Positions 3,599 to 47,081 of a stretch of 64,000 bases of DNA are shown in pieces; positions within the stretch are counted from its first letter, which is position 1, and every line of letters begins with the position of its first letter. This DNA comes from Escherichia phage vB_EcoM_005, in the sequence record MK295203; one strand, written 5' to 3'. The position numbers were made by a program, and so were the translations under genes. The notes under the pieces were generated by a model that worked only from the letters and a program-made list of their open reading frames with translations, did not search any database and was not told the DNA's origin.

Positions 3599-4229
3599 AC
3601 GCTTTTTTCATGGCCTCTGCGAGAGCCATAAAGGCGTCATCGGCACTGGTATCGGTTTCTACCGTTTGTGATTCTGTAATTTGCTTTGGAGTTACATAAG
3701 CATCAGGAGCAGATGGTCCCCATACTGCATCAACACCGACGGTTAATTTATAACCTTCGTTTACACGCTTATATCCTTTGTTGGTTTCGGTTAAAGAACC
3801 AAGACCACGAGAACTAACACCAGGAACCCAACCAGCACGGATATTTGCAGCTAGTTTATCACCTGGGCCATGGTCACCTTCGATGATACGTGCACGTCCA
3901 TAAACATCATTACCTTTCCACCACATATCTTCAATAATAATAGCGGCTTGCATAGGGTCAACGTTAGCACGAGGTGGGTGGTTTAATTCTCCTAAAGCTT
4001 GTTTAGTAGCAACCTGTTCCGCCATATAATCGGCAACGGCTTTTTCCAAAATAGGTTTTGGGTAAAGGCGTTTATTACGGTTAACTACCTCTGCTTGCAT
4101 GAAAATGCCTTCTATATAAAGGCCGGGAGCAAGCCCAGAATTTTTTCCATCATGAGATTCCAACATAGGAACCCCATCGATAATTTCACCTGGTTGTCCC
4201 CAATGTTCGATGAGCAATTCAGGTTTCAT
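3594..4229 (-). CDS. 21: prohead protease gp21
   Basis: 211 aa; ...GEIIDGVPMLESHDGK...GLYIEGIFMQAEVVNRNKRLYP... near-identical to T4 gp21 as recalled. Confidence 0.9.
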   Translation of the reverse strand: MKPELLIEHWGQPGEIIDGVPMLESHDGKNSGLAPGLYIEGIFMQAEVVNRNKRLYPKPILEKAVADYMAEQVATKQALGELNHPPRANVDPMQAAIIIEDMWWKGNDVYGRARIIEGDHGPGDKLAANIRAGWVPGVSSRGLGSLTETNKGYKRVNEGYKLTVGVDAVWGPSAPDAYVTPKQITESQTVETDTSADDAFMALAEAMKKAL

Positions 4230-4657
4230 TAGTTAAGTCCAAAAGCTTTACGTTTAGAACGGGCTTTCTTACGCTTACGTTCAGCACGCACTTGAGTAGA
4301 TGGATTAGCACGTTTGGTTTTAGATGCTTTACGAGCAATCTGACGGCGTTTTGCTTTAGATAAACCTGTCGTTTGGAACGCATTACGTTGACGGGTTTTA
4401 ATATCTTTAGTACGAGTAAGCTCACCTTTAGAGGAAACGTGTTTAACGATAAATTCGTTAAGAGCCATTGATTCATTTAAAGAACCAAGAGCGATAGCAC
4501 ATTCGATATCGCCTTCAGCAATCATGTTCTCTACAAGATTATTTATATCGCTTTTCTCGAGCGCTTCAGAAAGAGCAGCAAAACGTCCCTGTGCTTCTGG
4601 AATTTTAGCCTCTACGCTTTCTAGAGTTAATTCGTAATCATCAGGGATAAGGAACAT
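4229..4657 (-). CDS. 68: prohead core protein gp68
   Basis: 142 aa with very basic C-terminus; ATGA overlap with gene 21; T4 order 67-68-21. Confidence 0.8.
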
Positions 4658-6557: not shown

Positions 6558-7139
6558 TCATTCATTTTCATGTTTGTGATAACGTGTTATAGCCGAACGA
6601 GTTGATTCAACACCACAGATAGGGCAAATCATCCTTGGCTGATTAATCTTTTTGCCTTTAGCCGGATGTTCTTTACCAAACATCGGATTACCTTCACCAG
6701 ACATAGCTTTGGCTTGGTCTGGTCGCTTACGTCCTTTTAGAGCTTTAGAATGTTCAGGCCTCTTTTTACCTAACCTACAATCTCTTTGTAGCTGTTTGGC
6801 ATGTTCACTCATTGGAATCCCTTTACGAGACATTCCAAAGAACCCGTCAGGCTGAGCTAATGACATATTTATATAGTTTTTAGATTTAACTACATTATAC
6901 TTTATTTGAAGCTCTTTCTCAGCTATACGAGCTTCTTTATCGGTTTCAAATAAAGATAAAATTCTGGTTTTGAAAAGGTGCGGATTTTCTTTACGTTCTA
7001 GATTCCAAATCTTTTTATATGCTTGGGATAATACAGAACCATTATATCCTTCTTTGAGAATCCTTTCAACGTATGTTGAGCCAATATAACGACGGGGTAG
7101 TTTAGACCCCGTGTATATGGTTAAGTAAGTACAATACAT
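6558..7139 (-). CDS. GIY-YIG homing endonuclease with C-terminal zinc finger
   Basis: TIYTGSKLPRRYIGSTY N-terminal motifs, repeated basic H-x-AK segments, C-terminal CPICG...H; free-standing between genes 20 and 19. Confidence 0.7.
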   Translation of the reverse strand: MYCTYLTIYTGSKLPRRYIGSTYVERILKEGYNGSVLSQAYKKIWNLERKENPHLFKTRILSLFETDKEARIAEKELQIKYNVVKSKNYINMSLAQPDGFFGMSRKGIPMSEHAKQLQRDCRLGKKRPEHSKALKGRKRPDQAKAMSGEGNPMFGKEHPAKGKKINQPRMICPICGVESTRSAITRYHKHENE

Positions 7140-7169
7140 TCTAAACTCCTTGACTTCATTGTTTGAATG

Positions 7170-7177
7170 TATTTATA
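7170..7177 (-). promoter_or_regulatory. late promoter TATAAATA for HEG 6558..7139
   Basis: Minus-strand TATAAATA about 30 nt upstream of the HEG ATG. Confidence 0.4.
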
Positions 7178-7206
7178 CTATCATAATTTGCTATAAAAGT
7201 AAAAAC

Positions 7207-7698
7207 TTATTCCCACCAGTCAATAGCAAATGTGCTTTCAAATGTTTCTACCTCGTTATTCGAGTCCCAGTCCATCTGGACTTCACCAACGTTAGTAGGC
7301 CATAAGCCGTAAATTGTAACTTCTTTGGTCACAGTCTTGCCGTCACGATGGAACTGGCGAACTACTGCTTGTTTCTTATATTCTGCAGGTGCTGCACCGG
7401 TAATTTCATTGGTCATACCGTGACAGAGATTCTGCCAATCGACAATTGCTTGACGGGTGTCATGTGCATCATCGTTATAAATGGTAATTGTCCAATCATC
7501 AAACGTACGGTCACCAGCTACGTTAATTTTACGGTTCATGTAGCCAACCGGTACTTTTTCTACAATGCCTGCCGGCATAGGTGCTGCTTTACATTTAAAG
7601 CTAAAGTTTTTACCCAGAAATGGAATTTCCACTTCGAAAAGGTTAGGGCGTGCAAAGTCACCTGACTCGAAGGCCCTAGTGATATCCGTAAGTTCCAT
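7207..7698 (-). CDS. 19: tail tube protein gp19
   Basis: 163 aa; ...ITRAFESGDFARPNLFEVEI...GLWPTNVGE... matches T4 gp19 as recalled. Confidence 0.9.
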   Translation of the reverse strand: MELTDITRAFESGDFARPNLFEVEIPFLGKNFSFKCKAAPMPAGIVEKVPVGYMNRKINVAGDRTFDDWTITIYNDDAHDTRQAIVDWQNLCHGMTNEITGAAPAEYKKQAVVRQFHRDGKTVTKEVTIYGLWPTNVGEVQMDWDSNNEVETFESTFAIDWWE

Positions 7699-7701
7699 AA
7701 G

Positions 7702-8385
7702 TTAGTGTTTCCTATCATATTCTTCAATTAAATGGAATAGCATATCTAAATCTATACTATTTTTAGAATCTTTACTTCGATTCTTTTCCCAAGGAATCAT
7801 TTCTAGATTGCAAATGTGTCCTATTATTTCGGGAGGGACGCCATTTTCAAATCCATATTTGATAGATACCCTATGGTCTAATTGATAAGCTCCTTTAACA
7901 CCACATATCCCGCTTAGATGTCTATTTGGTAGATTATCAACTTCTTCTTTAAAAGTCTTATTAGTAAAAGACCTCACTGAATAATAATATTTATTACGTT
8001 CAGATTTGTTAGGATTCCATCTTCCGTTTTTAGGTCCTGAACAAGCTTCAATCTTTATACCTTTTTTAGACTTAGAAATTTTAGGCCCTTTGGTTTTACG
8101 GATTTTTATGCCTTCATCAGAATTCCAATATTCTTTTCTTGTTTCTGAATAGACTTCCCAACGATGCTCTTTACAGAACTTAGAATTGGTTTCATTAAGT
8201 CGCCCTTTTGTTACAGTATAATAAATGCCACATTTATCACATTTACACGTAACAGCCATTTTTCCAGGACAGTCTTCTAATTTTATTAAATGGGAGCTTC
8301 CACTTTTAACTTGATATCCAAGATTTTTAAAAGCAGAAACATTGCGATTCGTTATAGGTATTTCAAATAGAGTATTAGTAATCAT
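7702..8385 (-). CDS. HNH homing endonuclease (mob-like)
   Basis: C-terminal YQLDHRVSIKYGFENG...HICNLEMIPWEKNRSKD HNH motif, cysteine-rich N-terminus; inserted between genes 19 and 18. Confidence 0.7.
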   Translation of the reverse strand: MITNTLFEIPITNRNVSAFKNLGYQVKSGSSHLIKLEDCPGKMAVTCKCDKCGIYYTVTKGRLNETNSKFCKEHRWEVYSETRKEYWNSDEGIKIRKTKGPKISKSKKGIKIEACSGPKNGRWNPNKSERNKYYYSVRSFTNKTFKEEVDNLPNRHLSGICGVKGAYQLDHRVSIKYGFENGVPPEIIGHICNLEMIPWEKNRSKDSKNSIDLDMLFHLIEEYDRKH

Positions 8386-8407
8386 ACTTATATTTATATA
8401 CCAGAAA

Positions 8408-8436
8408 GTCGCAGGATTGCGCCTGCGACGTTTTTA
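8408..8436. terminator. terminator-like hairpin in 18/19 intergenic region
   Basis: GTCGCAGG-ATTGCG-CCTGCGAC hairpin followed by GTTTTTA; strand assignment ambiguous. Confidence 0.35.
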
Positions 8437-14204: not shown

Positions 14205-14908
14205 TTAATCATCTAAAAAAGCATCATCAAATGCTGTAGGAGGAGCATCTTCTCCTCGTCCATTAATTACAACATAAGGATGTACGAATTCAGCCGCTTC
14301 GGCATTAATCTCATTGACCTCTTCGTATTGAATGTCGGAGATATCAGCCAACCCGTCGATATTCTTAACAGGCATTAAATCAAGCTCACTGAATTCAGGA
14401 ATATTAATACCTTCATTTCTCTGTAATTCAGGACGAAGTTCTTCACCATTGTAAATGAACTTGGTAGCGGTAATTCGACGCTGGACGTTAGCACCTACTT
14501 GATAGAATGGGTCGTAAGGTTGTACCCAGTTAATTTCGAATAGGCTTATTATCCATTGGGAAATAAATCAAGTCGCCTGAAACAGGTTCAGTGCCATTGC
14601 ATTGATGTTTAAAAAGGTTAGGGTTAATTGTGATTGTTACTTCATCATTAACCATCATACCGAACTTACTGAAAGCCTATTCGGTCATTGGCATTTAACA
14701 TATTCACGTGGTATATAATAAAGCTCAATACCACGCATTTGAATAGACTCAGCAACTAAAGCATCAGCCAATGTTTGGGTATTCTCATGCTTGTAATGGT
14801 CGCCATTGGGTCATTGACAAAGGGATTGAGAATTTCGGCTTCGTTCGTATTAGCGTAACCTGTATTATTTTCTAGTTTGGCGAAAAGACTAGAATCAAAT
14901 GTCGACAT
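14205..14908 (-). CDS. 14: neck protein gp14 (multiple frameshifts; not translatable as one ORF)
   Basis: gp14-like segments lie in three frames: [23 protein letters not shown]..., [64 protein letters not shown]...; span of 704 nt is not a multiple of 3. Confidence 0.7.
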
Positions 14909-15521
14909 AACTCCACTCCTTCCATTTAGGTTTATCATTCTTTATTCTATTAATAACTGCGCTTTTGACTATACCAAAATACTCGGCGCATTCTTTACCT
15001 GTCGAGAATACCATTTCTCCGACTCTAACTGCTCTGGCCGCAGGATTTTTACTACCGGTAAAATCTGGGTGTTTCACACGCGTCCACATTAATGCGGTAG
15101 ATTCTTTTCTACGCTTTAGCCCTTCTTCAGTCCATTCTCTTGATTTTGCCGCCTCTGACATTCTTTTTCTTGATTCTATAGAACGGGTTTTACCTATATT
15201 AGGGTTATCTTTAGGATTGTAATAAGAAGGACCACCTTGTCCTCCTTTTACCAAATTAACACACTGAGCAAAATCTTCTTTAAGAATATCGACTAAAAGT
15301 TCTTCGGCTTCCTTTAATAATTCCGGATTACCGAAATCTTTCGACCATAATACCTGTTTTATACAGTTTCGTCCATATTTTTTCTTAGCATTCGAAATAT
15401 ACGTTCCTGAGCCAACGTATGAATCCAGCTTTGGATTAGATTTATCCGAATGTCTTTTACCGCCATAAATTTTTAATCCGTCCGACGTTTCAAACTCAGT
15501 CACGTATAATCTATAAAACAT
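14895..15521 (-). CDS. GIY-YIG homing endonuclease inserted between genes 13 and 14
   Basis: [10 protein letters not shown]...YVGSG motifs, C-terminal HTH; 3' end overlaps gene 14 start; ORF track fuses it to an upstream gene-14 fragment (14895..15668). Confidence 0.75.
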
Positions 15522-15568
15522 AATTATCCAATTAAAATAGGTGTTGGTGGGTCGAGTAAATCTAATTC
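15519..15568. repeat. 50-bp direct repeat, copy 1 (copy of gene 13 3' end)
   Basis: Identical 50-mer CATAATTATCCAATTAAAATAGGTGTTGGTGGGTCGAGTAAATCTAATTC also at 15666-15715. Confidence 0.85.
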
Positions 15569-15572
15569 GAAA

Positions 15573-37472: not shown

Positions 37473-37707
37473 AATGAAGACTATTATATAGTCAAGCCGT
37501 CGTATGAAGGACTGATTACCAGCATTCACCGGCGCAACAAACAAGAAACCGGGTCGCTACCGGTAAGTCGTCGGACTGAAGTTCCCTGAATAAGGACTGG
37601 CATTAACAAATCTTTACGATCTGTTAACGTCCCCTTATCTCACAGCTGAAACGGCGCACCGAACACTTGCCTAGCAGGTGGAACCCCGACAAGGTTACCC
37701 TAGGTTA
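37473..37707 (+). ncRNA. candidate small stable RNA downstream of tRNAs
   Basis: About 235 nt without ORF between tRNA-Arg and a strong terminator; T4 has stable RNAs next to its tRNA cluster. Confidence 0.3.
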
Positions 37708-37738
37708 AAGGCCCTTCCGAAAGGTTGGGCCTTTTTTG
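37708..37738 (+). terminator. rho-independent terminator
   Basis: AGGCCCTTCCGAAAGGTTGGGCCTTTTTT; identical copy at 38851-38880. Confidence 0.7.
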
Positions 37739-37746
37739 TATAAATA
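37739..37746 (+). promoter_or_regulatory. late promoter TATAAATA
   Basis: TATAAATA 29 nt upstream of internal-protein-like gene 37775. Confidence 0.5.
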
Positions 37747-37774
37747 GATAAGTTAATTAACACAGGAAACAATA

Positions 37775-38248
37775 ATGAAAACTTACAATGAATTTTTGAA
37801 CGAAAGCGTTCTGACTGAAGCCTCCGCTTCAGATGTTCGCGCTGCAGCAACTGCTGCTATTAAAGCCGGTAAATATTCTTATAAAGATGCTTCTGATGAA
37901 TCTCGGTACAAGTTCTACGACGATATGAGAGCTGAAGGCTTTGTGGGTAACTATGTTACCACCGCCTGGAAAAGCATGGTTGCTTCTGGTGCAGCTTTCG
38001 AAAAAGCTTCTGGTAAACCCGCTCCTAAGGCCGACCCTAAAGCAGCACAAGAAAAAAATATTGCTAAAGGAATTATCTCTAAGTATGAAGCAATTCTTAA
38101 AGAGCTTTTAGTAATCAAAACAGAAGGCCAGAAACTGGCACGAGCACATAGCTTCAAAGATAATCCACATGCTCACGACTTAGAGTATGTTGAAGATATT
38201 CAGAAAATCATCAAAGACCGTATCTGGTCTGCTAAACAAATCAAATAA
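37775..38248 (+). CDS. internal-protein-like (leader MKTYNEFLNES), 157 aa
   Basis: Leader variant, Ala/Lys-rich. Confidence 0.6.
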   Translation: MKTYNEFLNESVLTEASASDVRAAATAAIKAGKYSYKDASDESRYKFYDDMRAEGFVGNYVTTAWKSMVASGAAFEKASGKPAPKADPKAAQEKNIAKGIISKYEAILKELLVIKTEGQKLARAHSFKDNPHAHDLEYVEDIQKIIKDRIWSAKQIK

Positions 38249-38250
38249 CG

Positions 38251-38276
38251 AAAGCCCCGTCTGGGGCTTTTTTGGT
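38251..38276 (+). terminator. rho-independent terminator
   Basis: AAAGCCCCGTCTGGGGCTTTTTT. Confidence 0.65.
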
Positions 38277-38292
38277 TAACTTAGAGAAATAT

Positions 38293-38847
38293 ATGAAACT
38301 TTTAAAATATTTGAGTTGGGTTCTGTTGGTTCCACTGGATTTCATCTCTATGGTTCTGGCCGTTATCCTTGCGCCTTTTGTAGTTCCTTTCCATAATAAA
38401 AAGACCGGTAAATTGCCTTATGGCTTTGATTGGATGATGACATACGATAATCCAATTGACGGTGACAAAGGTCATATTAAACGTTGGGCTAAAATCAGGA
38501 AAATGCCGGGCGGTGTTTATCTCCAGAGGGTAGCTTGGCTATGGCGAAATAAAGCTTATAACTTTGCTTACCATAAACTTGGACGCGATTGTAGCTCAGA
38601 ATTCCATTATCGTGGTAATCCTGACGTTGAATCTGGTTCTCCTGATAAAGCTCATCATGGGTGGCTATGGATGTGGAATGATGAAGCATGGGGAGTCTTT
38701 GCTTCGGTTCCTTATCTTAAGGTTGGAGGTATTACCTTTTATCTTCGCGTGTACTGTGGTTGGAAACTTAAGAGTCTTTTGTCTCGTAAAATCCCTAAGG
38801 CTATGTTAGCCTTCCACATAAACCCGTTCCGGTTCTACAAGAACTGA
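38293..38847 (+). CDS. membrane protein, 184 aa
   Basis: N-terminal TM (LSWVLLVPLDFISMVLAVILAPFVV); Trp-rich C-terminal part; track start 38272 is TTG. Confidence 0.55.
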   Translation: MKLLKYLSWVLLVPLDFISMVLAVILAPFVVPFHNKKTGKLPYGFDWMMTYDNPIDGDKGHIKRWAKIRKMPGGVYLQRVAWLWRNKAYNFAYHKLGRDCSSEFHYRGNPDVESGSPDKAHHGWLWMWNDEAWGVFASVPYLKVGGITFYLRVYCGWKLKSLLSRKIPKAMLAFHINPFRFYKN

Positions 38848-38850
38848 TTC

Positions 38851-38880
38851 TAGGCCCTTCCGAAAGGTTGGGCCTTTTTT
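38851..38880 (+). terminator. rho-independent terminator (second copy)
   Basis: AGGCCCTTCCGAAAGGTTGGGCCTTTTTT identical to 37708-37738. Confidence 0.7.
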
Positions 38881-38903
38881 GTTTCTAAAAGTTTAAAAAA
38901 GAT

Positions 38904-38945
38904 GTTTACACCTCCTTTAAACATGATACTATAGACCTATCAAAA
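38904..38945 (+). promoter_or_regulatory. early promoter cassette (PeSL-like)
   Basis: GTTTAC...TGATACTATAGACCTATCAAAACAACAGAGTGAAGGAG leader. Confidence 0.6.
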
Positions 38946-38967
38946 CAACAGAGTGAAGGAGAGTAAA

Positions 38968-39231
38968 ATGGATAATTATGGTGAATTGTTTAATTTCTTT
39001 ATGAAATGCGTTCCGGAAGAATTTGGTGCTACCGTTAACGATATTAAGGTTATCGGTCCTGAACATCCGGTATATGAAACGTATGCTGTAATGGGTAATG
39101 AAGACGGACAATGGTATACAATTAAGGTTGTGGTTAATATGTTCTCAGCTGAAGGTTATGCTAAATCGTCTACCAAAGTTTATCATGATAACGATTTTGA
39201 TGCGGAAGATTATTTCAATAATATGAAATAA
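38968..39231 (+). CDS. hypothetical protein (87 aa)
   Basis: ATG 9 nt after AAGGAG; track start 38953 is GTG. Confidence 0.55.
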   Translation: MDNYGELFNFFMKCVPEEFGATVNDIKVIGPEHPVYETYAVMGNEDGQWYTIKVVVNMFSAEGYAKSSTKVYHDNDFDAEDYFNNMK

Positions 39232-39235
39232 AAAT

Positions 39236-39266
39236 GTTTACAACCCTCAGAGGACAGGGTATAATG
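39236..39266 (+). promoter_or_regulatory. early promoter (GTTTAC / TATAAT)
   Basis: GTTTAC 39236-39241, 18-nt spacer, GGTATAAT. Confidence 0.5.
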
Positions 39267-39307
39267 TCCTCATGGATTATAAATCTTAACCAACTGAAGG
39301 AAATACT

Positions 39308-39901
39308 ATGAACACTTTAAAGAAAATCGTTGAATTCATCCGTTCTAAACTGGGTACTGCAATGGCTCAGAACCTGTCAATCGAAGACCAATACACCAAA
39401 GCTGCTTCTACCCTGATTGATAAAATCACTGAACTCCAGACTGCTCATGTTAAGTCTGTGAATGAAGAAAAACGTATTCGTGCGTTGGCTAATGAAAAAG
39501 ACCAGCTCGCTGCTTCTAAAGAACGTGAAATTCGTAAACTGATTGCCGAAGGCGCTGATGTCCAGGTACATGCTAAACTTGGCCTCCTTTATCGTCGTAC
39601 AGCTACTCAGCTTCGTAAGAAAGCTGATGATTATATCGAAATGCGTAATGAAATTAAACTGAAGGTTAAGGAACTTGATGACTCTCGTCAGGAACTGGCT
39701 GTTAAGCTCGAGTACATCCGTGAAACTCGTAATATGGCTGCCCTTGGTATTGCTACTGCTGATGATGTTGTTGAAATTGCTGCACTGACCAAGATTGATA
39801 TCGAAGACACCCTGATGCGTGTAGAAACGTTTAAAGGCCCACAAGTTGGAATGGATACGACTTCTGCTGATATCGAAGACTACATTAATTCACTTAAGTA
39901 A
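39308..39901 (+). CDS. coiled-coil protein, 197 aa
   Basis: Long heptad-like helical sequence; function unknown. Confidence 0.5.
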
Positions 39902-39906
39902 TGTTA

Positions 39907-39932
39907 CCGGGAGACTTCGGTCTCCCTATTTG
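39907..39932 (+). terminator. terminator hairpin
   Basis: GGGAGACTTCGGTCTCCC (same stem as the 1350 hairpin) with weak T tail. Confidence 0.45.
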
Positions 39933-39949
39933 GAGGAGAGGAGAATATT

Positions 39950-40486
39950 ATGAGTTTATACGACGACCTGATATCAAATATTGATTGGTTTAAACATAGT
40001 GGTCTTTCACATGAAACTAATGCAGTTCTTTATAGAATTCGCCAAGACCTAGGTTATTCAAACGATTTCTTAAGCAGAACATCTAGCCGTGGGCATACTA
40101 CCAAATTACCCTTTATCTTTGCTTTAGCTGAGGACCTTTCTTTTGCAGATGCTTTAGAAATTATTGACCTTGAATTAGGTATACAACGTGTGGAGTTCGC
40201 TGGGCTACGCTATTCAGTATACTCTTTAAATGAACCAAGCGATTATAAACAGCTTGTTGATGCCGACGATGATTACCATTTAGTATGCTATTTGATGTTA
40301 GAAAATGGTGACCACTTTGGTATGGTCGACCGTCGCCCGAGTTATTCGGATATTAAAAATTACGATAAAGATGAGCTTATTATTTTGGCTAATGAGTATA
40401 CATCAGAGATTCGAAAACAACAACGGAAGCTTAATCGTTTTATTGCTGAATGCCGCGAATACGCTAAAGAGGTTCGTAATGTATAA
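39950..40486 (+). CDS. hypothetical protein (178 aa)
   Basis: ATG after GGAGGAGAGGAG; no recognisable motif. Confidence 0.55.
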   Translation: MSLYDDLISNIDWFKHSGLSHETNAVLYRIRQDLGYSNDFLSRTSSRGHTTKLPFIFALAEDLSFADALEIIDLELGIQRVEFAGLRYSVYSLNEPSDYKQLVDADDDYHLVCYLMLENGDHFGMVDRRPSYSDIKNYDKDELIILANEYTSEIRKQQRKLNRFIAECREYAKEVRNV

Positions 40487-40832
40487 GCCTAGTAAAACCG
40501 ACCCTGGTTACGCATTAGCAGATTATGATATAGCTATTTCATTATTCCTCGGCATTGCTACTAGTATGGTTGCAGGGATAATTGGATTTCTTGTCGGCGG
40601 GATTATTAATGGTATGCCTCGCCATCCGTTTGAAGATATGAGCCTCGCGTGGATTTGGGTTCCAGCTTTAATAGGATACTTTATCCCAGTGGTCTTTGAT
40701 ATTACCCAAACCAATAAAATAAACAAGCCACGTAAAAAGAGATATGCTTTAGAGATGGCTAATTATAATGAGTATGTAAAACAAACCAAACGTAATGACC
40801 TTGAAACCTTTATTAAGGAATGTAAATCATGA
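40479..40832 (+). CDS. membrane protein with C-terminal ...ETFIKECKS (paralog of 45357..45944)
   Basis: Two TM segments; C-terminal motif shared with 45357..45944 (...NSFIKECRK). Confidence 0.55.
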   Translation: MYKPSKTDPGYALADYDIAISLFLGIATSMVAGIIGFLVGGIINGMPRHPFEDMSLAWIWVPALIGYFIPVVFDITQTNKINKPRKKRYALEMANYNEYVKQTKRNDLETFIKECKS

Positions 40833-41119
40833 ATAAAATTGAAATTGAAATCCCTGAATACAACAGCGCGCTGTCTGCAGAAAAGGCTATCTATGACCTG
40901 CTGGGTAAAGTAGACACCATCGAATCCAAATGTGAAGAAATCGCAGATGAATATGGTATTGAATTCAGCACAGGTGATTATGGTTCAGGCCGTACATATT
41001 ATCCTGTCGGTTATGAATGCTCCCAGTGGTTTAAAGATGAAATTGAAAACAACGGTGGTGAAGTTGAAAACGGCGTCGTTACAGTTGGTGCTTGGGTCTC
41101 CTCTTCAGCAATGTGCTAA
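40829..41119 (+). CDS. small acidic protein, WxSS..C-terminus family, member A
   Basis: Ends GAWVSSSAMC; stop TAA overlaps next RBS TAAGGA. Confidence 0.6.
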   Translation: MNKIEIEIPEYNSALSAEKAIYDLLGKVDTIESKCEEIADEYGIEFSTGDYGSGRTYYPVGYECSQWFKDEIENNGGEVENGVVTVGAWVSSSAMC

Positions 41120-41128
41120 GGAAACGCT

Positions 41129-41410
41129 ATGATGAATGATTACCGTAAAAATAAAGAACTGGCTGAAGCAGTAAATGATATCCATAAAGCTATTCGTCGT
41201 GCTGAGGAAATTGCAAACAAATATGAGACTCATTTTAATATATACCCTGCTCGCGGTATGGGCGGTGACTATTATTCTCCTGGCGCCTTGAAAGCCGACC
41301 TTGCCCACTGGGAAGAATACGGTGAAGCTCAGTATGCTATTGTAAACCAACATGATTACACTACCAGCCTAGAAAATGGTGGATGGGTGTCCTCTTCTTC
41401 TGAATGTTAA
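41129..41410 (+). CDS. small acidic protein, WxSS..C-terminus family, member B
   Basis: Ends GGWVSSSSEC; TAAGGA coupling. Confidence 0.6.
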   Translation: MMNDYRKNKELAEAVNDIHKAIRRAEEIANKYETHFNIYPARGMGGDYYSPGALKADLAHWEEYGEAQYAIVNQHDYTTSLENGGWVSSSSEC

Positions 41411-41419
41411 GGAATTATT

Positions 41420-41617
41420 ATGTCTCGTGAACTAGATTGTGCAATCCGTACTGCAGCCGCAGCTATTGAAAACGTTATCCAGATTTGTAAAGAAGAACGC
41501 GAAGAAGCTGATATCTATATCGATGGCGCTCGTGACCTAGAACGACATATCACGCTTTATAACGGTTGTATTACTATTAGTGGTACTTCCTGGGTATCAT
41601 CCTCTTACGAATGCTAA
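41420..41617 (+). CDS. small acidic protein, WxSS..C-terminus family, member C
   Basis: Ends TSWVSSSYEC; TAAGGA coupling. Confidence 0.6.
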   Translation: MSRELDCAIRTAAAAIENVIQICKEEREEADIYIDGARDLERHITLYNGCITISGTSWVSSSYEC

Positions 41618-41626
41618 GGAAATAAA

Positions 41627-41836
41627 ATGACTATTGATGAAATTGAAAAACAAATCCGCGAATTAGTACGTAAAGGCCAGTCCGTGGCTGACGAAACAGG
41701 TCAGCACTTCCACGCTGGAGGCGAAGAATATATTCCAGCTTCTAGTCCGGAATATGATGATTACGAATGGGCCCGTGATGATTACGGTATCCCAGATGGT
41801 GAAGGTTTCTGGTTTACATCCTCTATGTCTTGCTAA
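41627..41836 (+). CDS. small acidic protein, WxSS..C-terminus family, member D
   Basis: Ends GFWFTSSMSC; TAAGG coupling. Confidence 0.6.
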   Translation: MTIDEIEKQIRELVRKGQSVADETGQHFHAGGEEYIPASSPEYDDYEWARDDYGIPDGEGFWFTSSMSC

Positions 41837-41846
41837 GGTGATAAAA

Positions 41847-42071
41847 ATGTCTGATATTAATGAATTAGAAAAAGCGGCACTTGAACTGGCTGCACTGTAT
41901 AAGAAAGTAAAAGATATGGCTTCTGCTCAGGATTTCCGTGTTGAGCTCGATGATTATGACGGTGAAGTTCGTCTCGAAGATTGGCTGAATAGCTCTTGTT
42001 ATGGTGAAGAAGCTGGTCGCACCTTCGTTGCTCAGGCCGATGGTAAAATCTGGTATCCTAGCTCATGCTAA
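41847..42071 (+). CDS. small acidic protein, WxSS..C-terminus family, member E
   Basis: Internal ATG of ORF 41754..42071; ends KIWYPSSC. Confidence 0.55.
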   Translation: MSDINELEKAALELAALYKKVKDMASAQDFRVELDDYDGEVRLEDWLNSSCYGEEAGRTFVAQADGKIWYPSSC

Positions 42072-42292
42072 AATTAAAGAAAAGATACATTCGTAAAATA
42101 AATGGTCTTCGCGATTATGCTAAAGGTTGGCCATTAAGTATTATTATGGCTGATAGACACCCGCGTTATAATACTGAGATGACTTATTACAAAAAGTACG
42201 ATTCATATTGTCGGTCTAAAGCAGGTCGTTTAGATGGTTCTTATGAAGACTATTTCGGTAAAAAACCTACCCGTATTTCGTTAGGAAAATAA
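42065..42292 (+). CDS. hypothetical basic protein (75 aa)
   Basis: ATG overlaps previous stop; Lys/Arg/Tyr-rich. Confidence 0.45.
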   Translation: MLKLKKRYIRKINGLRDYAKGWPLSIIMADRHPRYNTEMTYYKKYDSYCRSKAGRLDGSYEDYFGKKPTRISLGK

Positions 42293-42322
42293 TTTAATCA
42301 CACGGATGTGGTAGGAGGACTT

Positions 42323-42652
42323 ATGCATAAAGATTCAGTATTCAAATATCTTTTGAAAACAGATAAAGAATTCTATATGAATGGACAAGCTTTCTTGTTC
42401 GTTCGTGGTAAACGTGAGATGTTTTACAAATGCGACCTCTCAATGCACCATCATATGTATCACACCCATGGTGAGCCTATACTGGGGTTCTCTGGTGACG
42501 AAACCAGACATATAGCTATGTACTACGACCATTTTAAGCTCAATGATTGTGGTGACAACGCTCTGGTCTGGAATCCATCTTGGCGTCGTTGGGATACGGT
42601 AGACAACGATAAATTATTTTTAGAATATTGCAGAAGCGATGTACAACTCTAA
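42323..42652 (+). CDS. hypothetical protein (109 aa)
   Basis: ATG after AGGAGG; His-rich (HHHMYHTH); track start 42308 is GTG. Confidence 0.5.
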   Translation: MHKDSVFKYLLKTDKEFYMNGQAFLFVRGKREMFYKCDLSMHHHMYHTHGEPILGFSGDETRHIAMYYDHFKLNDCGDNALVWNPSWRRWDTVDNDKLFLEYCRSDVQL

Positions 42653-42695
42653 AAATACGTGTTACTATTACCCTACACAAACATGAGGAGAACAT

Positions 42696-42935
42696 ATGTG
42701 GTATTACGCTCCGATGTCCGATAAGTCTAATGAACCGCTACGCATTACTCGTGCCAGGTTTAAAAAGATTTATGGCTTTGCTTATAAGAAGTCTGATTAC
42801 GGTGTTCGTTTTGAAGATGCCCACTGTATCAATGACCCTTATGCAGAAGAAATTTCTAATGAGATAATTCCTATCATTAAGAATAATTCTGATGATATGT
42901 GGGAATTGCATAACGATTACGTCGCTGAAATTTAA
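42696..42935 (+). CDS. hypothetical protein (79 aa)
   Basis: ATG after GAGGAG. Confidence 0.5.
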   Translation: MWYYAPMSDKSNEPLRITRARFKKIYGFAYKKSDYGVRFEDAHCINDPYAEEISNEIIPIIKNNSDDMWELHNDYVAEI

Positions 42936-42954
42936 GTTTACTGAGGAAAATATT

Positions 42955-43818
42955 ATGATGTTAGTTATTGGTTCTCGTGCACTGCACCACGCTGGTCTGA
43001 TTGAAAGTAAGCATATCGAAAATTCTGATTGGGATTTCATTGCCGACCAAGGTTCATGGAACCATTTTAAAGCTCGGATGTTTGGTGCCCATGTTTCTGT
43101 GGATAATCCTGATGTCCAGGCTTTTAAATGCATGTACAACGGTAAAGAAACCTATTTTGAAGCATATATCGTTCGTGCTCTGACTAACGTACGAGAAATT
43201 ACCGGCGAGCTTCAAGACGAAGATTTCACCTCAAGTTATCGTCTCCTGAAATATGCCGAAAATCATATTAAAAAGGACCGTCTTACAGGTTTCTATTGGG
43301 CTACGCCTGATATCTGTCTGGCTATCAAAACCTCTCATCGTTTCCTGAAGAATAATCCTTTCTTCTTGAAAACTATGTCCCACATCAAATACCTTCGTAA
43401 TAAAGGTACCACCTTGAATGAAGAACTCCAGGAAATTATGCTGCAACGTCAAAAAGAAACGTTGAGCTATTCCCATCCTAAATTGGATGTAAACAAATCA
43501 TCGTTCTTTAATGATACCATGGAGAAGTTCGAGGCTTTGCCTGAAGCTATTAAATTGGCTGGTGTGTATGAAGAAACCTGTGTCCTGGCACTAGAACGTT
43601 CACAGGTTCCTAATGACTTCAATATTTCACCATCATTAAGTTTCTATATGGCTCTTGAGAAAGTGTGTACCTCAATCACTTCAGGTTGGTTCCGCACTTA
43701 TGCATGGGAAAACTACCAAGCTGTGGTTAATATGTACAAGACTTTAGGTGAAAGTGACTACATTGAACGATTTAAACGTAATCAACATCTTATTAAACCT
43801 TTCAAAAAGGCTGAGTAA
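42955..43818 (+). CDS. hypothetical protein (287 aa), possible nucleotidyltransferase-like N-terminus
   Basis: Internal ATGATG start after GAGGAAAA; N-terminal LVIGSRALHH...SDWDF loosely resembles a GS...DxD motif. Confidence 0.5.
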   Translation: MMLVIGSRALHHAGLIESKHIENSDWDFIADQGSWNHFKARMFGAHVSVDNPDVQAFKCMYNGKETYFEAYIVRALTNVREITGELQDEDFTSSYRLLKYAENHIKKDRLTGFYWATPDICLAIKTSHRFLKNNPFFLKTMSHIKYLRNKGTTLNEELQEIMLQRQKETLSYSHPKLDVNKSSFFNDTMEKFEALPEAIKLAGVYEETCVLALERSQVPNDFNISPSLSFYMALEKVCTSITSGWFRTYAWENYQAVVNMYKTLGESDYIERFKRNQHLIKPFKKAE

Positions 43819-44468
43819 TGGGACGGCCTCTAAAAGATTTAACCGGACAGGTTATAAATGGTATTAAATTTTTATCGGTGGCCTATAAAGCCACCGGATC
43901 GCCAACCAAGTGGCTTTTATTGTGCCATTGCGGTGAAGAATTCGTTACCACCGCCTCTAGAATAAAAACAGGAAAAACAAAATCATGCGGCTGTGAAAGA
44001 TACCATTATTCCTTTATAAAGAATAGGTATACATATTCCTCATATTCTGCTATGATTGCTAGATGTACAGACCCTAAACATAAAGCCTATCCCGCCTACG
44101 GTGGTAATGGTATAGTTGTTTGTGACGAGTGGCTTCCTAAAGGAAAGAAAGGGTATTTAAAATTTGTCGAGGATATGGGCGAGAGACCTAAAGGGACTTC
44201 AATAAATCGAATAGGTTCTGTTAAAAGGTATAGCAAAGAAACTTGTGAGTGGGCTCCATTTACAATGCAATCATTTGACCAAAGAACGCGTCATGATTCA
44301 CCGGGTCCTATTTCAGGAGTTGTATATAGAAAAGATAGAAATAAATGGGTAGCTTCTATAACAGTAGAAGGCGAAGCCATAGGGCTATATTATGGTGATA
44401 CTGAAAGCGAAGCGATAGAGGCTAGAAAACAAGCTGAACTTAAATATTTTGGAAGATTTAAGTCATAA
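43818..44468 (+). CDS. AP2-domain DNA-binding protein (homing-endonuclease-like)
   Basis: C-terminal ...GVVYRKDRNKWVASITVEGEAIGLYYGDTESEAIEARKQAELKYFG AP2-type motif; Cys-rich N-terminus. Confidence 0.55.
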   Translation: MGRPLKDLTGQVINGIKFLSVAYKATGSPTKWLLLCHCGEEFVTTASRIKTGKTKSCGCERYHYSFIKNRYTYSSYSAMIARCTDPKHKAYPAYGGNGIVVCDEWLPKGKKGYLKFVEDMGERPKGTSINRIGSVKRYSKETCEWAPFTMQSFDQRTRHDSPGPISGVVYRKDRNKWVASITVEGEAIGLYYGDTESEAIEARKQAELKYFGRFKS

Positions 44469-44766: not shown

Positions 44767-45357
44767 ATGAACGGTCCAAAAACTTTTAATTCTCAAGCTC
44801 GTGCAGTCGGTGGTTTTGCTCAAGATATCAGTAATGATATGATTAAAAATGAGCCTATGTTCTTTAATTGCGATGCTTATTTTGCTCATAAACACGGCGG
44901 TCCTATTACTCGTAGCTTTATTGAAAACCTGCCTGAAGATTGGCAATGTGGCCCTGATATTGTATTTGATTCCCGTGTACACATGTTAATGCCTGGCTGG
45001 TACCCTGCAATTCCAGGCTTCCACCATGATGATGTACCACGTCCGGATATTCCGGTCGGCCAACACTTTATTACCGCAGGGCAGCCTGATTATGATAATC
45101 CTCGTTACCATTCTGAACATATTCTTGGTCTTGTTAACGCTGGAATTGAGTCCAATGAATTAACCAAGTGGGATGCTCCTGACCGCACGTTGCTCCAGTT
45201 TGATTGGCAGACGTGGCATACCGGTTCTCGTGCAGTAAGTAATGGTTGGCGCTGGTTTGGTCGTGTCTCTCGTAATACTGACCGTGTTAAAAAGATTACT
45301 AATGAAATCCGTGTTAATGCTCAAGTTTATCTGGAATTCCCTATGGAGGGCTGGTAA
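44767..45357 (+). CDS. hypothetical protein (196 aa), possible Fe/2OG-oxygenase-like
   Basis: FHHDD...WHTGSR...RWFGRVSR resembles HxD...H...R arrangement; unverified. Confidence 0.5.
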   Translation: MNGPKTFNSQARAVGGFAQDISNDMIKNEPMFFNCDAYFAHKHGGPITRSFIENLPEDWQCGPDIVFDSRVHMLMPGWYPAIPGFHHDDVPRPDIPVGQHFITAGQPDYDNPRYHSEHILGLVNAGIESNELTKWDAPDRTLLQFDWQTWHTGSRAVSNGWRWFGRVSRNTDRVKKITNEIRVNAQVYLEFPMEGW

Positions 45358-45944
45358 TGGCCCTTTATGAACCTGGGTGTATGGGCATTGATGCAAACTT
45401 CATCCGTCGGTCGGAAAATGCTGGAATTATTATCCCAAGTGGTGAGAATATGATTATTAAAAAGTCCTGGCGAAATATCGATGACTGTGATGAAGGAATT
45501 TCAGCCAGTACAATAGATTGGTCAGGTTGTACTGCCGAAATGAAACAGCTTTTAATTGAGGAATATAAAATGGGCTATATTGTAAACGGCTGGCAAGCGG
45601 AACCACATAAAGAACAGACTCCAGACCCATTGATTTGTTATAGCAAAAAATACGGCTTCCGTGCCTGGAGTGATGAATACGACAAATTGGTGAGTTCTAG
45701 ATTCTATGTTTGGATGGGTATATTATTTTTCCCACTCCTAGGGTTTTTCCTGACAACAGATAATGACCTGCCTATTTGTGTATTCGCTTCAGCGATGTCT
45801 GCTGCTATCTTAGGTCTTATCGCATCATTTTTATGGACCTCTGTTATCGAAGTACCTTTTCGTATTTCTAAAGTTAAAAAGGTATATGACGATATCACTA
45901 AGAAAAATACATTAAACTCTTTTATTAAGGAATGCCGTAAATGA
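45357..45944 (+). CDS. membrane protein with C-terminal ...NSFIKECRK (paralog of 40479..40832)
   Basis: Two TM segments in C-terminal half; shared C-terminal motif. Confidence 0.55.
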   Translation: MALYEPGCMGIDANFIRRSENAGIIIPSGENMIIKKSWRNIDDCDEGISASTIDWSGCTAEMKQLLIEEYKMGYIVNGWQAEPHKEQTPDPLICYSKKYGFRAWSDEYDKLVSSRFYVWMGILFFPLLGFFLTTDNDLPICVFASAMSAAILGLIASFLWTSVIEVPFRISKVKKVYDDITKKNTLNSFIKECRK

Positions 45945-46649: not shown

Positions 46650-47081
46650 ATGGATATTTTTGATATGTTACGTCAAGACGAAGGTCTTGATTTAAATCTT
46701 TATAAAGACACTGAAGGTTATTGGACTATTGGTATTGGCCAATTGATTACTAAGAACCCTTCTAAAGATGTTGCTCGTGCTGAACTTGATAAGCTTATGG
46801 GTCGAGTTTGTAATGGTCGTATTACTATGGCTGAAGCTGAACAACTCTTTAACCGATCGGTTGAAAATGCTCGTAGAGCTATTCTGCGTAATCCTAAATT
46901 GAAACCTGTTTATGATGTACTGGACGAAGTTCGTCGTTGTGCTTTAATTAACATGGTCTTCCAAATGGGTGAAGCAGGCGTAGCAGGGTTCACTAACTCT
47001 TTACGTATGCTCCAACAGAAACGTTGGAACGATGCGGCAGTTAACCTGGTTTATCGCAGAGAATGTAATTCCTGCATCTAA
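46650..47081 (+). CDS. e: lysozyme (endolysin) e, C-terminally truncated
   Basis: [33 protein letters not shown]... matches T4 lysozyme to ...AAVNL then diverges and stops (143 aa versus 164). Confidence 0.85.

Follow-up and report, generated by a model that had tools for sequence, protein, structure and literature searches.

Small acidic phage proteins with a common C-terminal W-SS-C tail, and their linkage to a gene for a predicted MenT/AbiEii-like nucleotidyltransferase

Nucleotidyltransferases (NTases) of the pol-beta type usually take hydroxyl groups as acceptors, and in two described systems, MntA-HepT and GlnD-PII, such an enzyme acts on a small protein dedicated to it, in which a hydroxyl side chain is covalently modified. 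Small acidic proteins with a conserved motif at their extreme C-terminus, which is used by a cognate enzyme, are also known, for example, LysW, Pup, and the ThiS-type proteins. The subject of this analysis is a stretch of 64,000 nucleotides (nt) of Escherichia phage vB_EcoM_005 (sequence record MK295203), called the window below. It contains a cluster of five small genes, whose acidic products all end in the tail W-x(1-2)-S-S-x(0-2)-Cys-stop (W-SS-C), and, downstream of these, a gene whose product (the partner) has a predicted MenT/AbiEii-like NTase fold.

Several described systems resemble this arrangement in part. In the Mycobacterium tuberculosis toxin-antitoxin pair MenA1-MenT1, MenA1, a protein of 68 amino acids (aa), blocks MenT1, and it can serve as a model for small proteins that plug an enzyme of this kind. 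The upstream small proteins were, however, found to be related neither to MenA1 nor to AbiEi/MenA3 (COG5340). AbiEi-AbiEii (DUF1814) is comparable in that the predicted fold of the partner would place it in the same NTase superfamily. Regulation of AbiE involves transfer to an active-site Ser, i.e., auto-phosphorylation (bioRxiv 10.64898/2026.01.19.700257), and such a site is therefore able to act on a protein Ser hydroxyl. Nevertheless, the antitoxin AbiEi (COG5340) has two domains, binds DNA, and bears no relation to the small proteins, PADLOC gave no AbiE match, and AbiE is a bacterial defence system, whereas the W-SS-C/NTase module is carried by lytic phages.

The likeness to MntA-HepT and GlnD-PII would be a functional analogy only, as the residue modified by MntA and GlnD is a Tyr within a folded partner, whereas here it would be a Ser or Cys of a C-terminal tail, and their partners are non-homologous and do not occur as tandem paralog arrays. 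LysW, Pup, and ThiS differ from the W-SS-C proteins in their motifs (EDWGE, GGQ/E, and GG, respectively), in their folds, and in their enzymes (ATP-grasp, PafA, and E1). The tail described here ends in Cys instead of the Gly-Gly of ubiquitin-like and sulfur-carrier proteins, and the partner is of the pol-beta NTase type, not an E1. Finally, RlaP (PF10127) is likewise a phage-encoded pol-beta NTase. Identity of the partner with RlaP was considered and rejected, because the partner matches DUF7277 and DUF7275, and PF10127 gives no match in Pfam scans. The RNA ligase gene to which RlaP is linked is absent near the partner in the window and in most loci, being adjacent only in Ralstonia phage RSP15. 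The accessible parts of the RlaP literature mention no small tail-tagged partner (PMC7824862; PMC12776372).

The five-gene cluster and its tail

The window is assigned to Dhakavirus, a genus of T4-like phages. Over the cluster, it shares 99% identity with Salmonella phage vB_SalM_ABTNLsp5 (MW149274) and 89-95% with phages of the JS98 group, and one IMG/VR contig (UViG_2974741249) is 100% identical to the window. The site is the counterpart of the T4 'e.x' hyperplastic accessory region, with tRNA genes and an e.6 homologue (39308-39901) on one side, and nudE and the e lysozyme gene on the other. T4 itself does not have the cluster, and its e.2-e.5 proteins are unrelated to the five open reading frames (ORFs).

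The sequence-only reading had described five consecutive acidic ORFs with these C-terminal ends, and all of this was confirmed, with the five ORFs on the + strand (Table 1). Their isoelectric points (pI) lie between 4.05 and 5.06, with 12-19 Asp and Glu residues versus 5-9 Lys and Arg residues, and the gaps between them measure 9-10 nt. The further claim that every stop codon is embedded in TAAGGA holds for the junctions 1>2, 2>3, and 3>4, but not for junction 4>5, which reads TAAGGTGA, nor after ORF5, whose stop overlaps the ATG of the next gene (ATGCTAA). At the other end, the start of ORF1 overlaps the stop of an upstream membrane-protein gene (ATGA). For ORF5, the start was set at ATG 41847, and not at 41754, from which the program-made ORF list gave 105 aa, on account of the orthologues (P0036, P0037, and that of Klebsiella phage P545) and of a GGTGA ribosome-binding site. 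As the best sigma-70-like promoter match lies upstream of the e.6 homologue, and no terminator-like site was found on the + strand up to 44500, the cluster is probably, by inference, part of an early transcription unit, and the unit starting at this match likely takes it in.

When all six frames of the window are translated, the relaxed tail motif with a stop codon directly after it appears five times, always inside the cluster, versus a mean of 0.29 and a maximum of 3 in 300 first-order Markov simulations. ORF5 carries a second, internal copy (DWLNSSC, 41982-41999). The Ser codons of the motif differ (TCC, TCT, TCA, and AGC), which argues for conservation at the protein level. An RNA-level role, in which the Ser codons (UCCUCU) would pair with the AGGA of the next gene and mask its ribosome-binding site, was also considered. 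It was rejected on folding the four junctions, whose z-scores against shuffled sequences were +0.04, +1.06, -0.70, and +0.75.

A profile of 19 sequences, searched against 1.84 billion cluster representatives (E<=1e-3), yielded a family of 280 clusters at 50% identity. Nearly all matches are 60-120 aa long and align through the very last residue, and the median pI of the 182 short members is 4.46. The consensus comprises an N-terminal helix (...EAExIADExG..F.F), a loop ((A)YGMGGxYYP), an acidic Trp-rich linker, and the tail. The exact form W-x-x-S-S-x-x-C ends 162 of the 182 short members and the relaxed form 176 of them, the others being truncated or frameshifted; W, S-S, and the terminal C are the sole tail residues that are invariant across these members. 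In 96 of the 182, the terminal Cys is also the sole Cys of the protein. As the tail is thus kept in distant homologues, the possibility that the motif might be missing from them, which the sequence-only reading had named as its weak point, falls away. The spacing varies (WYPSSC, WNSSNC, and WQGSSC), which suggests a short linear motif and not a rigid structural element.

A replacement of the terminal Cys by Tyr in Acinetobacter phage Kimel (locus L009, 3992-4183) was considered as a clue to the acceptor residue. It proved uninformative: one nucleotide differs (TGT>TAT), Cys is retained in the close relatives Berthold, Lazarus, and KARL-1, and the small proteins of Octan and Meroveus match that of Kimel exactly through the first 51 residues.

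The five ORFs had been taken for paralogs. This stands for ORFs 1, 2, 4, and 5, whose bodies match the PHROG 899 profile (E 3e-23 to 7e-10), and not for ORF3, whose body is not detectably homologous. ORF3 matches PHROG 4882 only, and its hhalign alignment to the family covers the last 11 residues only, so that the tail is the unit in common. ORF2 has the family loop (GMGGDYYSPG) and orthologues in 283 phage records. Both PHROGs are annotated 'unknown function', and no model of Pfam, NCBIfam, or PADLOC matches the small proteins. Their profile search of the PDB returned coiled-coil noise and no solved structural relative, and fold searches gave no match to a beta-grasp fold. The AlphaFold (AF2) model of ORF1 has a predicted local distance difference test score (pLDDT) of 86.5, with a long helix (residues 14-42) and a small sheet; the last block, which holds the tail, scores 65, as expected for a flexible peptide. 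Full-text literature searches by family name, by motif, and by concept retrieved no description of either the small-protein family or the partner in the library covered. The small-protein family is, therefore, already catalogued in PHROGs, yet uncharacterised.

The partner gene and its linkage to the small genes

The partner gene starts 884 nt downstream of ORF5, on the same strand. Its product belongs to Pfam families DUF7277 and DUF7275 and to PHROG 2141, all of unknown function, and it measures 298-324 aa (typically about 315 aa) in annotated relatives. Of 50,697 phage records, 667 carry it, with a single copy in each genome. Its AlphaFold model (pLDDT 92) finds its best matches in the toxins MenT1, MenT3, and MenT4, and in the ANT and Lnu nucleotidyltransferases. 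G5, D24, and D26 are invariant and S6 is nearly so, which corresponds to motif I (hG[GS]...DxD); K124, H127, R128, and K138 are invariant as well, and D142 is conserved in the consensus. The partner thus carries both motif I and the C-terminal K/R/D motifs of a pol-beta NTase, on a predicted fold of this type, and these intact catalytic motifs fit an active enzyme of MenT/AbiEii architecture. The highly conserved motifs are IGSRAL...DxDF, KMSHRFKKNxPHFLKTM, YDHDSIHEA, PAYTFYMKDGSEV, VLALERSQIP, and ALEKVCTSITSGWFREYAWENY, and the large DUF7275 domain carries an invariant His/Asp/Glu set, together with an invariant Cys. The partner of Streptomyces phage Wakanda is shorter and diverged, with MKTVTSFSKGWF in place of KVCTSITSGWF. 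Fusions of a small protein with the enzyme were not found among 120 partner homologues.

The small genes and the partner gene occur together far beyond the window. Every annotated locus that was examined (Moonvirus Merlin, Mosigvirus APCEc01, Marfavirus P545, Otagovirus phiPsa374, Ralstonia RSP15, Phapecoctavirus nieznany, and Acinetobacter Lazarusvirus Kimel) has one or more small genes upstream of the partner, on the same strand. When IMG/VR loci were selected by the partner, 71 of 80 held at least one family ORF, in 1-6 copies, as detected with a hidden Markov model (HMM) built for the family (E<1e-3). These ORFs are nearly all on the same strand and end 0-2.2 kb upstream of the partner. 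Inspection of the nine HMM-negative loci revealed a divergent tail-bearing ORF directly upstream in four (L036, L052, L063, and L073), a probable one in L086, and, in L088, one that is truncated where the contig stops, which brings the total to about 77 of 80.

The reverse selection relied on a degenerate DNA pattern for the AYGMGGxY loop, and 45 of its 78 matched loci contain a family ORF. The partner is present in 39 of these, and the remaining six have less than 500 nt of downstream DNA, so that all 39 testable loci hold it. It lies downstream of the family ORF in 37 of the 39, often at a distance of 4-30 nt. By comparison, none of the 33 chance-match loci, taken as a control, contains the partner. 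With the same pattern, bacterial and archaeal genomes (298 Gb) gave one family ORF among the 80 matches listed, on a 16.6-kb contig of a Flavobacterium metagenome-assembled genome (MAG), and there too the partner abuts it. The pair was found in Dhaka-, Mosig-, Moon-, Marfa-, Lazarus-, Otago-, and Phapecoctavirus, in Ralstonia RSP15, and in jumbo contigs of about 360 kb. The small proteins fall into several anciently diverged subtypes, each of which is kept across genera beside a single enzyme. The pairing of family and partner appears near-obligate and, apparently, undescribed. That unrelated lineages of phages conserve this module of 1-6 small genes and one partner gene speaks for a joint action of the small proteins and the enzyme.

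Table 1. Positions of the five small genes, the partner gene, the promoter match, and the sequence gaps in the window
Feature	Position	Strand	Details
Small acidic protein 1 (ORF1)	40829..41119	+	96 aa; tail GAWVSSSAMC; PHROG 899, E 3.4e-23
Small acidic protein 2 (ORF2)	41129..41410	+	93 aa; tail GGWVSSSSEC; PHROG 899, E 2.6e-20
Small acidic protein 3 (ORF3)	41420..41617	+	65 aa; tail TSWVSSSYEC; PHROG 4882 only
Small acidic protein 4 (ORF4)	41627..41836	+	69 aa; tail GFWFTSSMSC; PHROG 899, E 9.3e-13
Small acidic protein 5 (ORF5)	41847..42071	+	74 aa; short-format tail KIWYPSSC; PHROG 899, E 7.4e-10
Partner gene, DUF7277 + DUF7275 protein	42955..43818	+	predicted MenT/AbiEii-like NTase fold; 287 aa in the window
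Best sigma-70-like promoter match	39237..39265	+	TTTACA-17-TATAAT, 11/12; consensus match only; upstream of e.6 homologue
Gaps relative to MW149274	~3004, 9414, 16370, 19203, 19464, 20591, 21018, 23298, 23985, 30240, 31005, 31231, 37663, 43521, 45143, 47048

The partner gene of the window is shorter than in all relatives by 102 nt at about 43521, with the segment IYT.DHDSIHEAVA...PAYTFYMK.GSEVMTS missing. Inactivation of the enzyme in Escherichia phage vB_EcoM_005 was, therefore, considered, but it was rejected, as this gap is one of at least 15 similar dropouts that recur across essential genes. Compared with MW149274, the net loss is 99 nt in eleven of the gaps and 97-147 nt in the others, and the genes hit at scattered sites include essential ones for head, sheath, and baseplate. 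At 155 kb, the identical IMG/VR genome is also shorter than those of relatives (about 170 kb). Besides the NTase gene, the gaps truncate the e lysozyme ORF (46650-47081, 143 aa versus 164) and the ORF at 44767-45357. These gaps of about 99 nt very probably arose when the source genome was assembled and do not reflect biology. The five ORFs are gap-free, and the block 37662-43520 is colinear with MW149274.

Possible roles of the tail

The explanation preferred here, which is put forward tentatively and at somewhat less than even confidence, is that the small proteins are cognate partners of the downstream NTase, and that their tail is its recognition or acceptor site, i.e., that they are substrates. 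One to six tail-tagged small proteins and one enzyme would form a conserved module, in which the enzyme would recognize the invariant, flexible tail W-x(1-2)-S-S-x(0-2)-Cys-COOH and admit it to the active site as an acceptor. A Ser hydroxyl of the tail, or possibly its terminal Cys, would then take a nucleotidyl or phosphoryl group, while the Trp would stack on the base, and the thiol and carboxylate of the last residue would lie near the catalytic metals. The diverged acidic bodies would send each modified protein to a different downstream target. Physical interaction, tail docking, transfer chemistry, and the downstream role are all points that we infer.

This explanation draws on the invariant Ser-Ser, Trp, and Cys chemistry of the tail, and on the fact that ORF3 shares nothing but the tail. 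It is also supported by the usual use of hydroxyl groups as NTase acceptors, and by phosphate transfer to a Ser at a DUF1814 site. This transfer has been reported for DUF1814 active sites (PMC10435456; bioRxiv 10.64898/2026.01.19.700257). The sequence-only reading had suggested that the motif is a shared processing, modification, or targeting signal, and a role in modification or recognition would fit the near-obligate linkage to an NTase gene. Nothing in the analysis speaks for the packaging or anti-restriction activity that had also been raised.

Several observations weigh against the small proteins being NTase substrates. No recognisable small ORF was found at three partner loci (L032, L066, and L067), and no evident tail-bearing ORF accompanies the diverged partner of phage Wakanda. 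In T4-like phages, three unrelated small genes separate the cluster from the partner. Some family members contain internal W-x-S-S-x-C repeats, and such non-terminal copies mean that a free C-terminus is perhaps not strictly needed. Membership of the partner in DUF1814/AbiEii is not established, since the resemblance is at the fold level alone: Pfam gave DUF7277 and DUF7275 only, even at E up to 10, PADLOC gave no DUF1814/AbiEii match, and a PDB profile search with the partner returned no MenT and no solved protein. Finally, its closest structural relatives act on tRNA 3' ends and are under antitoxin control, which favours the small proteins being inhibitors. They would then be antitoxin-like or pseudosubstrate regulators of a MenT/AbiEii-type toxin that extends tRNA 3' ends, plugging its active site with their tails and thereby timing or restraining it during infection. 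The predicted structural matches to MenT1, MenT3, and MenT4 agree with this, as do the long N-terminal helix, a size near that of MenA1, and the low pI, which would suit mimicry of an RNA substrate. The gene order, with the small gene first and often abutting, is toxin-antitoxin-like, and menA1 itself lies upstream of a menT in 15 of 21 cases (PMC10435456). Nevertheless, the presence of diverged subtypes beside one enzyme fits many substrates of one enzyme better than many inhibitors of one toxin, and regulation of this kind is regarded as unlikely, if a serious candidate.

A role apart from the enzyme appears quite improbable. In that case, the small proteins would be independent host-directed effectors, whose tail is read by the host machinery as a degron, through PDZ-type or other C-terminal recognition, as a metal-enzyme inhibitor acting by its thiol and carboxylate, or as a targeting signal. 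The position of the cluster in a hyperplastic accessory region that is early and has many genes for host takeover, the resemblance of small acidic proteins to many phage inhibitors, and the genes that part the cluster from the enzyme in T4-like phages would all agree with this. The linkage argues otherwise, as the partner is found in 39 of 39 testable loci of unrelated phage groups, usually adjacent, versus 0 of 33 controls. Moreover, with hosts among Enterobacteria, Pseudomonas, Ralstonia, Acinetobacter, and Aeromonas, as well as the Flavobacterium MAG contig, a single host reader of the tail would need to be universal. Still less credit is given to a system akin to ribosomally synthesized and post-translationally modified peptides (RiPPs), or to carrier proteins. 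Tandem precursor-like genes with one conserved modification motif beside one enzyme recall such systems, and the S-S-x-x-C spacing resembles Ser...Cys ring-forming motifs. Ser and Cys could then be converted (lanthionine/AviCys-type), or the terminal Cys could carry a cargo, as in LysW or sulfur carriers. This is very improbable because the matching enzymes are absent from the neighbouring ORFs: no dehydratase, cyclase, flavin decarboxylase, radical-SAM, or E1/ATP-grasp gene was found in the window cluster. Pol-beta-type NTases, the class of the sole conserved neighbour, do not carry out such reactions, and the proteins are predicted to be folded domains of 65-100 aa, with no leader/core organisation.

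If the tail does act as an NTase acceptor, the module could constitute a phage protein-tagging system, a possible but rather unlikely extension. The MenT-like NTase would nucleotidylylate the W-SS-C tails, or prime a short nucleotide chain on them, and the conjugates would be aimed at targets in the host; one conceivable role is that of decoys for defences that are directed at tRNA or sense nucleotides.

Neighbouring genes and significance

Many proteins encoded near the cluster, often membrane proteins, have another motif near the C-terminus. It reads [E/N]-F-[IV]-x-x-C-[RK] and lies no more than about 10 residues from the end. It is found in the window at 39950-40486, about 40479-40832, and 45357-45944, in T4 e.3, e.4, and e.5 (L002), and in loci L003-L005, with 4-6 such ORFs per locus in Merlin, APCEc01, and Klebsiella phage P545. 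Examples are RFIAECREY, ETFIKECKS, and NSFIKECRK, together with KFVKECREY (T4 e.5) and EFVIDCRKIK (T4 e.3). This motif may mark a second paralog family or a signal shared in the e.x region.

Directly after the NTase gene, the window contains an HNH endonuclease ORF of 216 aa (43818-44468, + strand; PHROG 374, E 1e-61). Related phage records that cover at least 80% of the window between 42900 and 44600 were not found. Relative to MW149274, there are four more insertions of about 540-690 nt (at about 660-1528, 6563-7205, 7686-8433, and 14674-15571), which show no protein-level homology to the HNH ORF. The ORF at 44767-45357 (196 aa in the window, ending in ...NGWRWFGRVSRNTDRVKKITNEIRVNAQVYLEFPMEGW, and about 228 aa in the T4-like relatives examined) belongs to PHROG 1843, of unknown function. 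In T4-like phages (L003-L005), its homologues are conserved not far downstream of the NTase gene.

Other genes adjoin the module in more distant phages. In Phapecoctavirus nieznany (L008), a homologue of T4 vs.4 (4195-4470) is located directly after the W-SS-C gene and before the NTase gene, and a gene for a NinI-like Ser/Thr phosphatase lies about 1.5 kb upstream. T4 vs.4 presumably belongs to the Acb2 anti-CBASS family, and this locus may be an anti-defence neighbourhood. In Ralstonia RSP15 (L007, 4834-6825), a gene for an RnlB RNA ligase 2 immediately follows the NTase partner, and this order hints at a connection with RNA ends in that phage only.

The module is present in at least 667 phage records, including many candidates for therapeutic use among the T4-like phages that infect E. 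coli, Klebsiella, Acinetobacter, and Aeromonas. To our knowledge, MenT/AbiEii-type enzymes are described solely as bacterial toxins and abortive-infection effectors. A phage-borne relative of MenT with partners of its own suggests either that this chemistry has been co-opted for host takeover or counter-defence, or that the enzyme has protein substrates. The invariant eight-residue tail provides a simple sequence rule for finding further members, as well as a direct experimental handle. A tagging system, if it proves true, would amount to a new pathway of post-translational modification, and its conjugates would be phage effectors of a new class.

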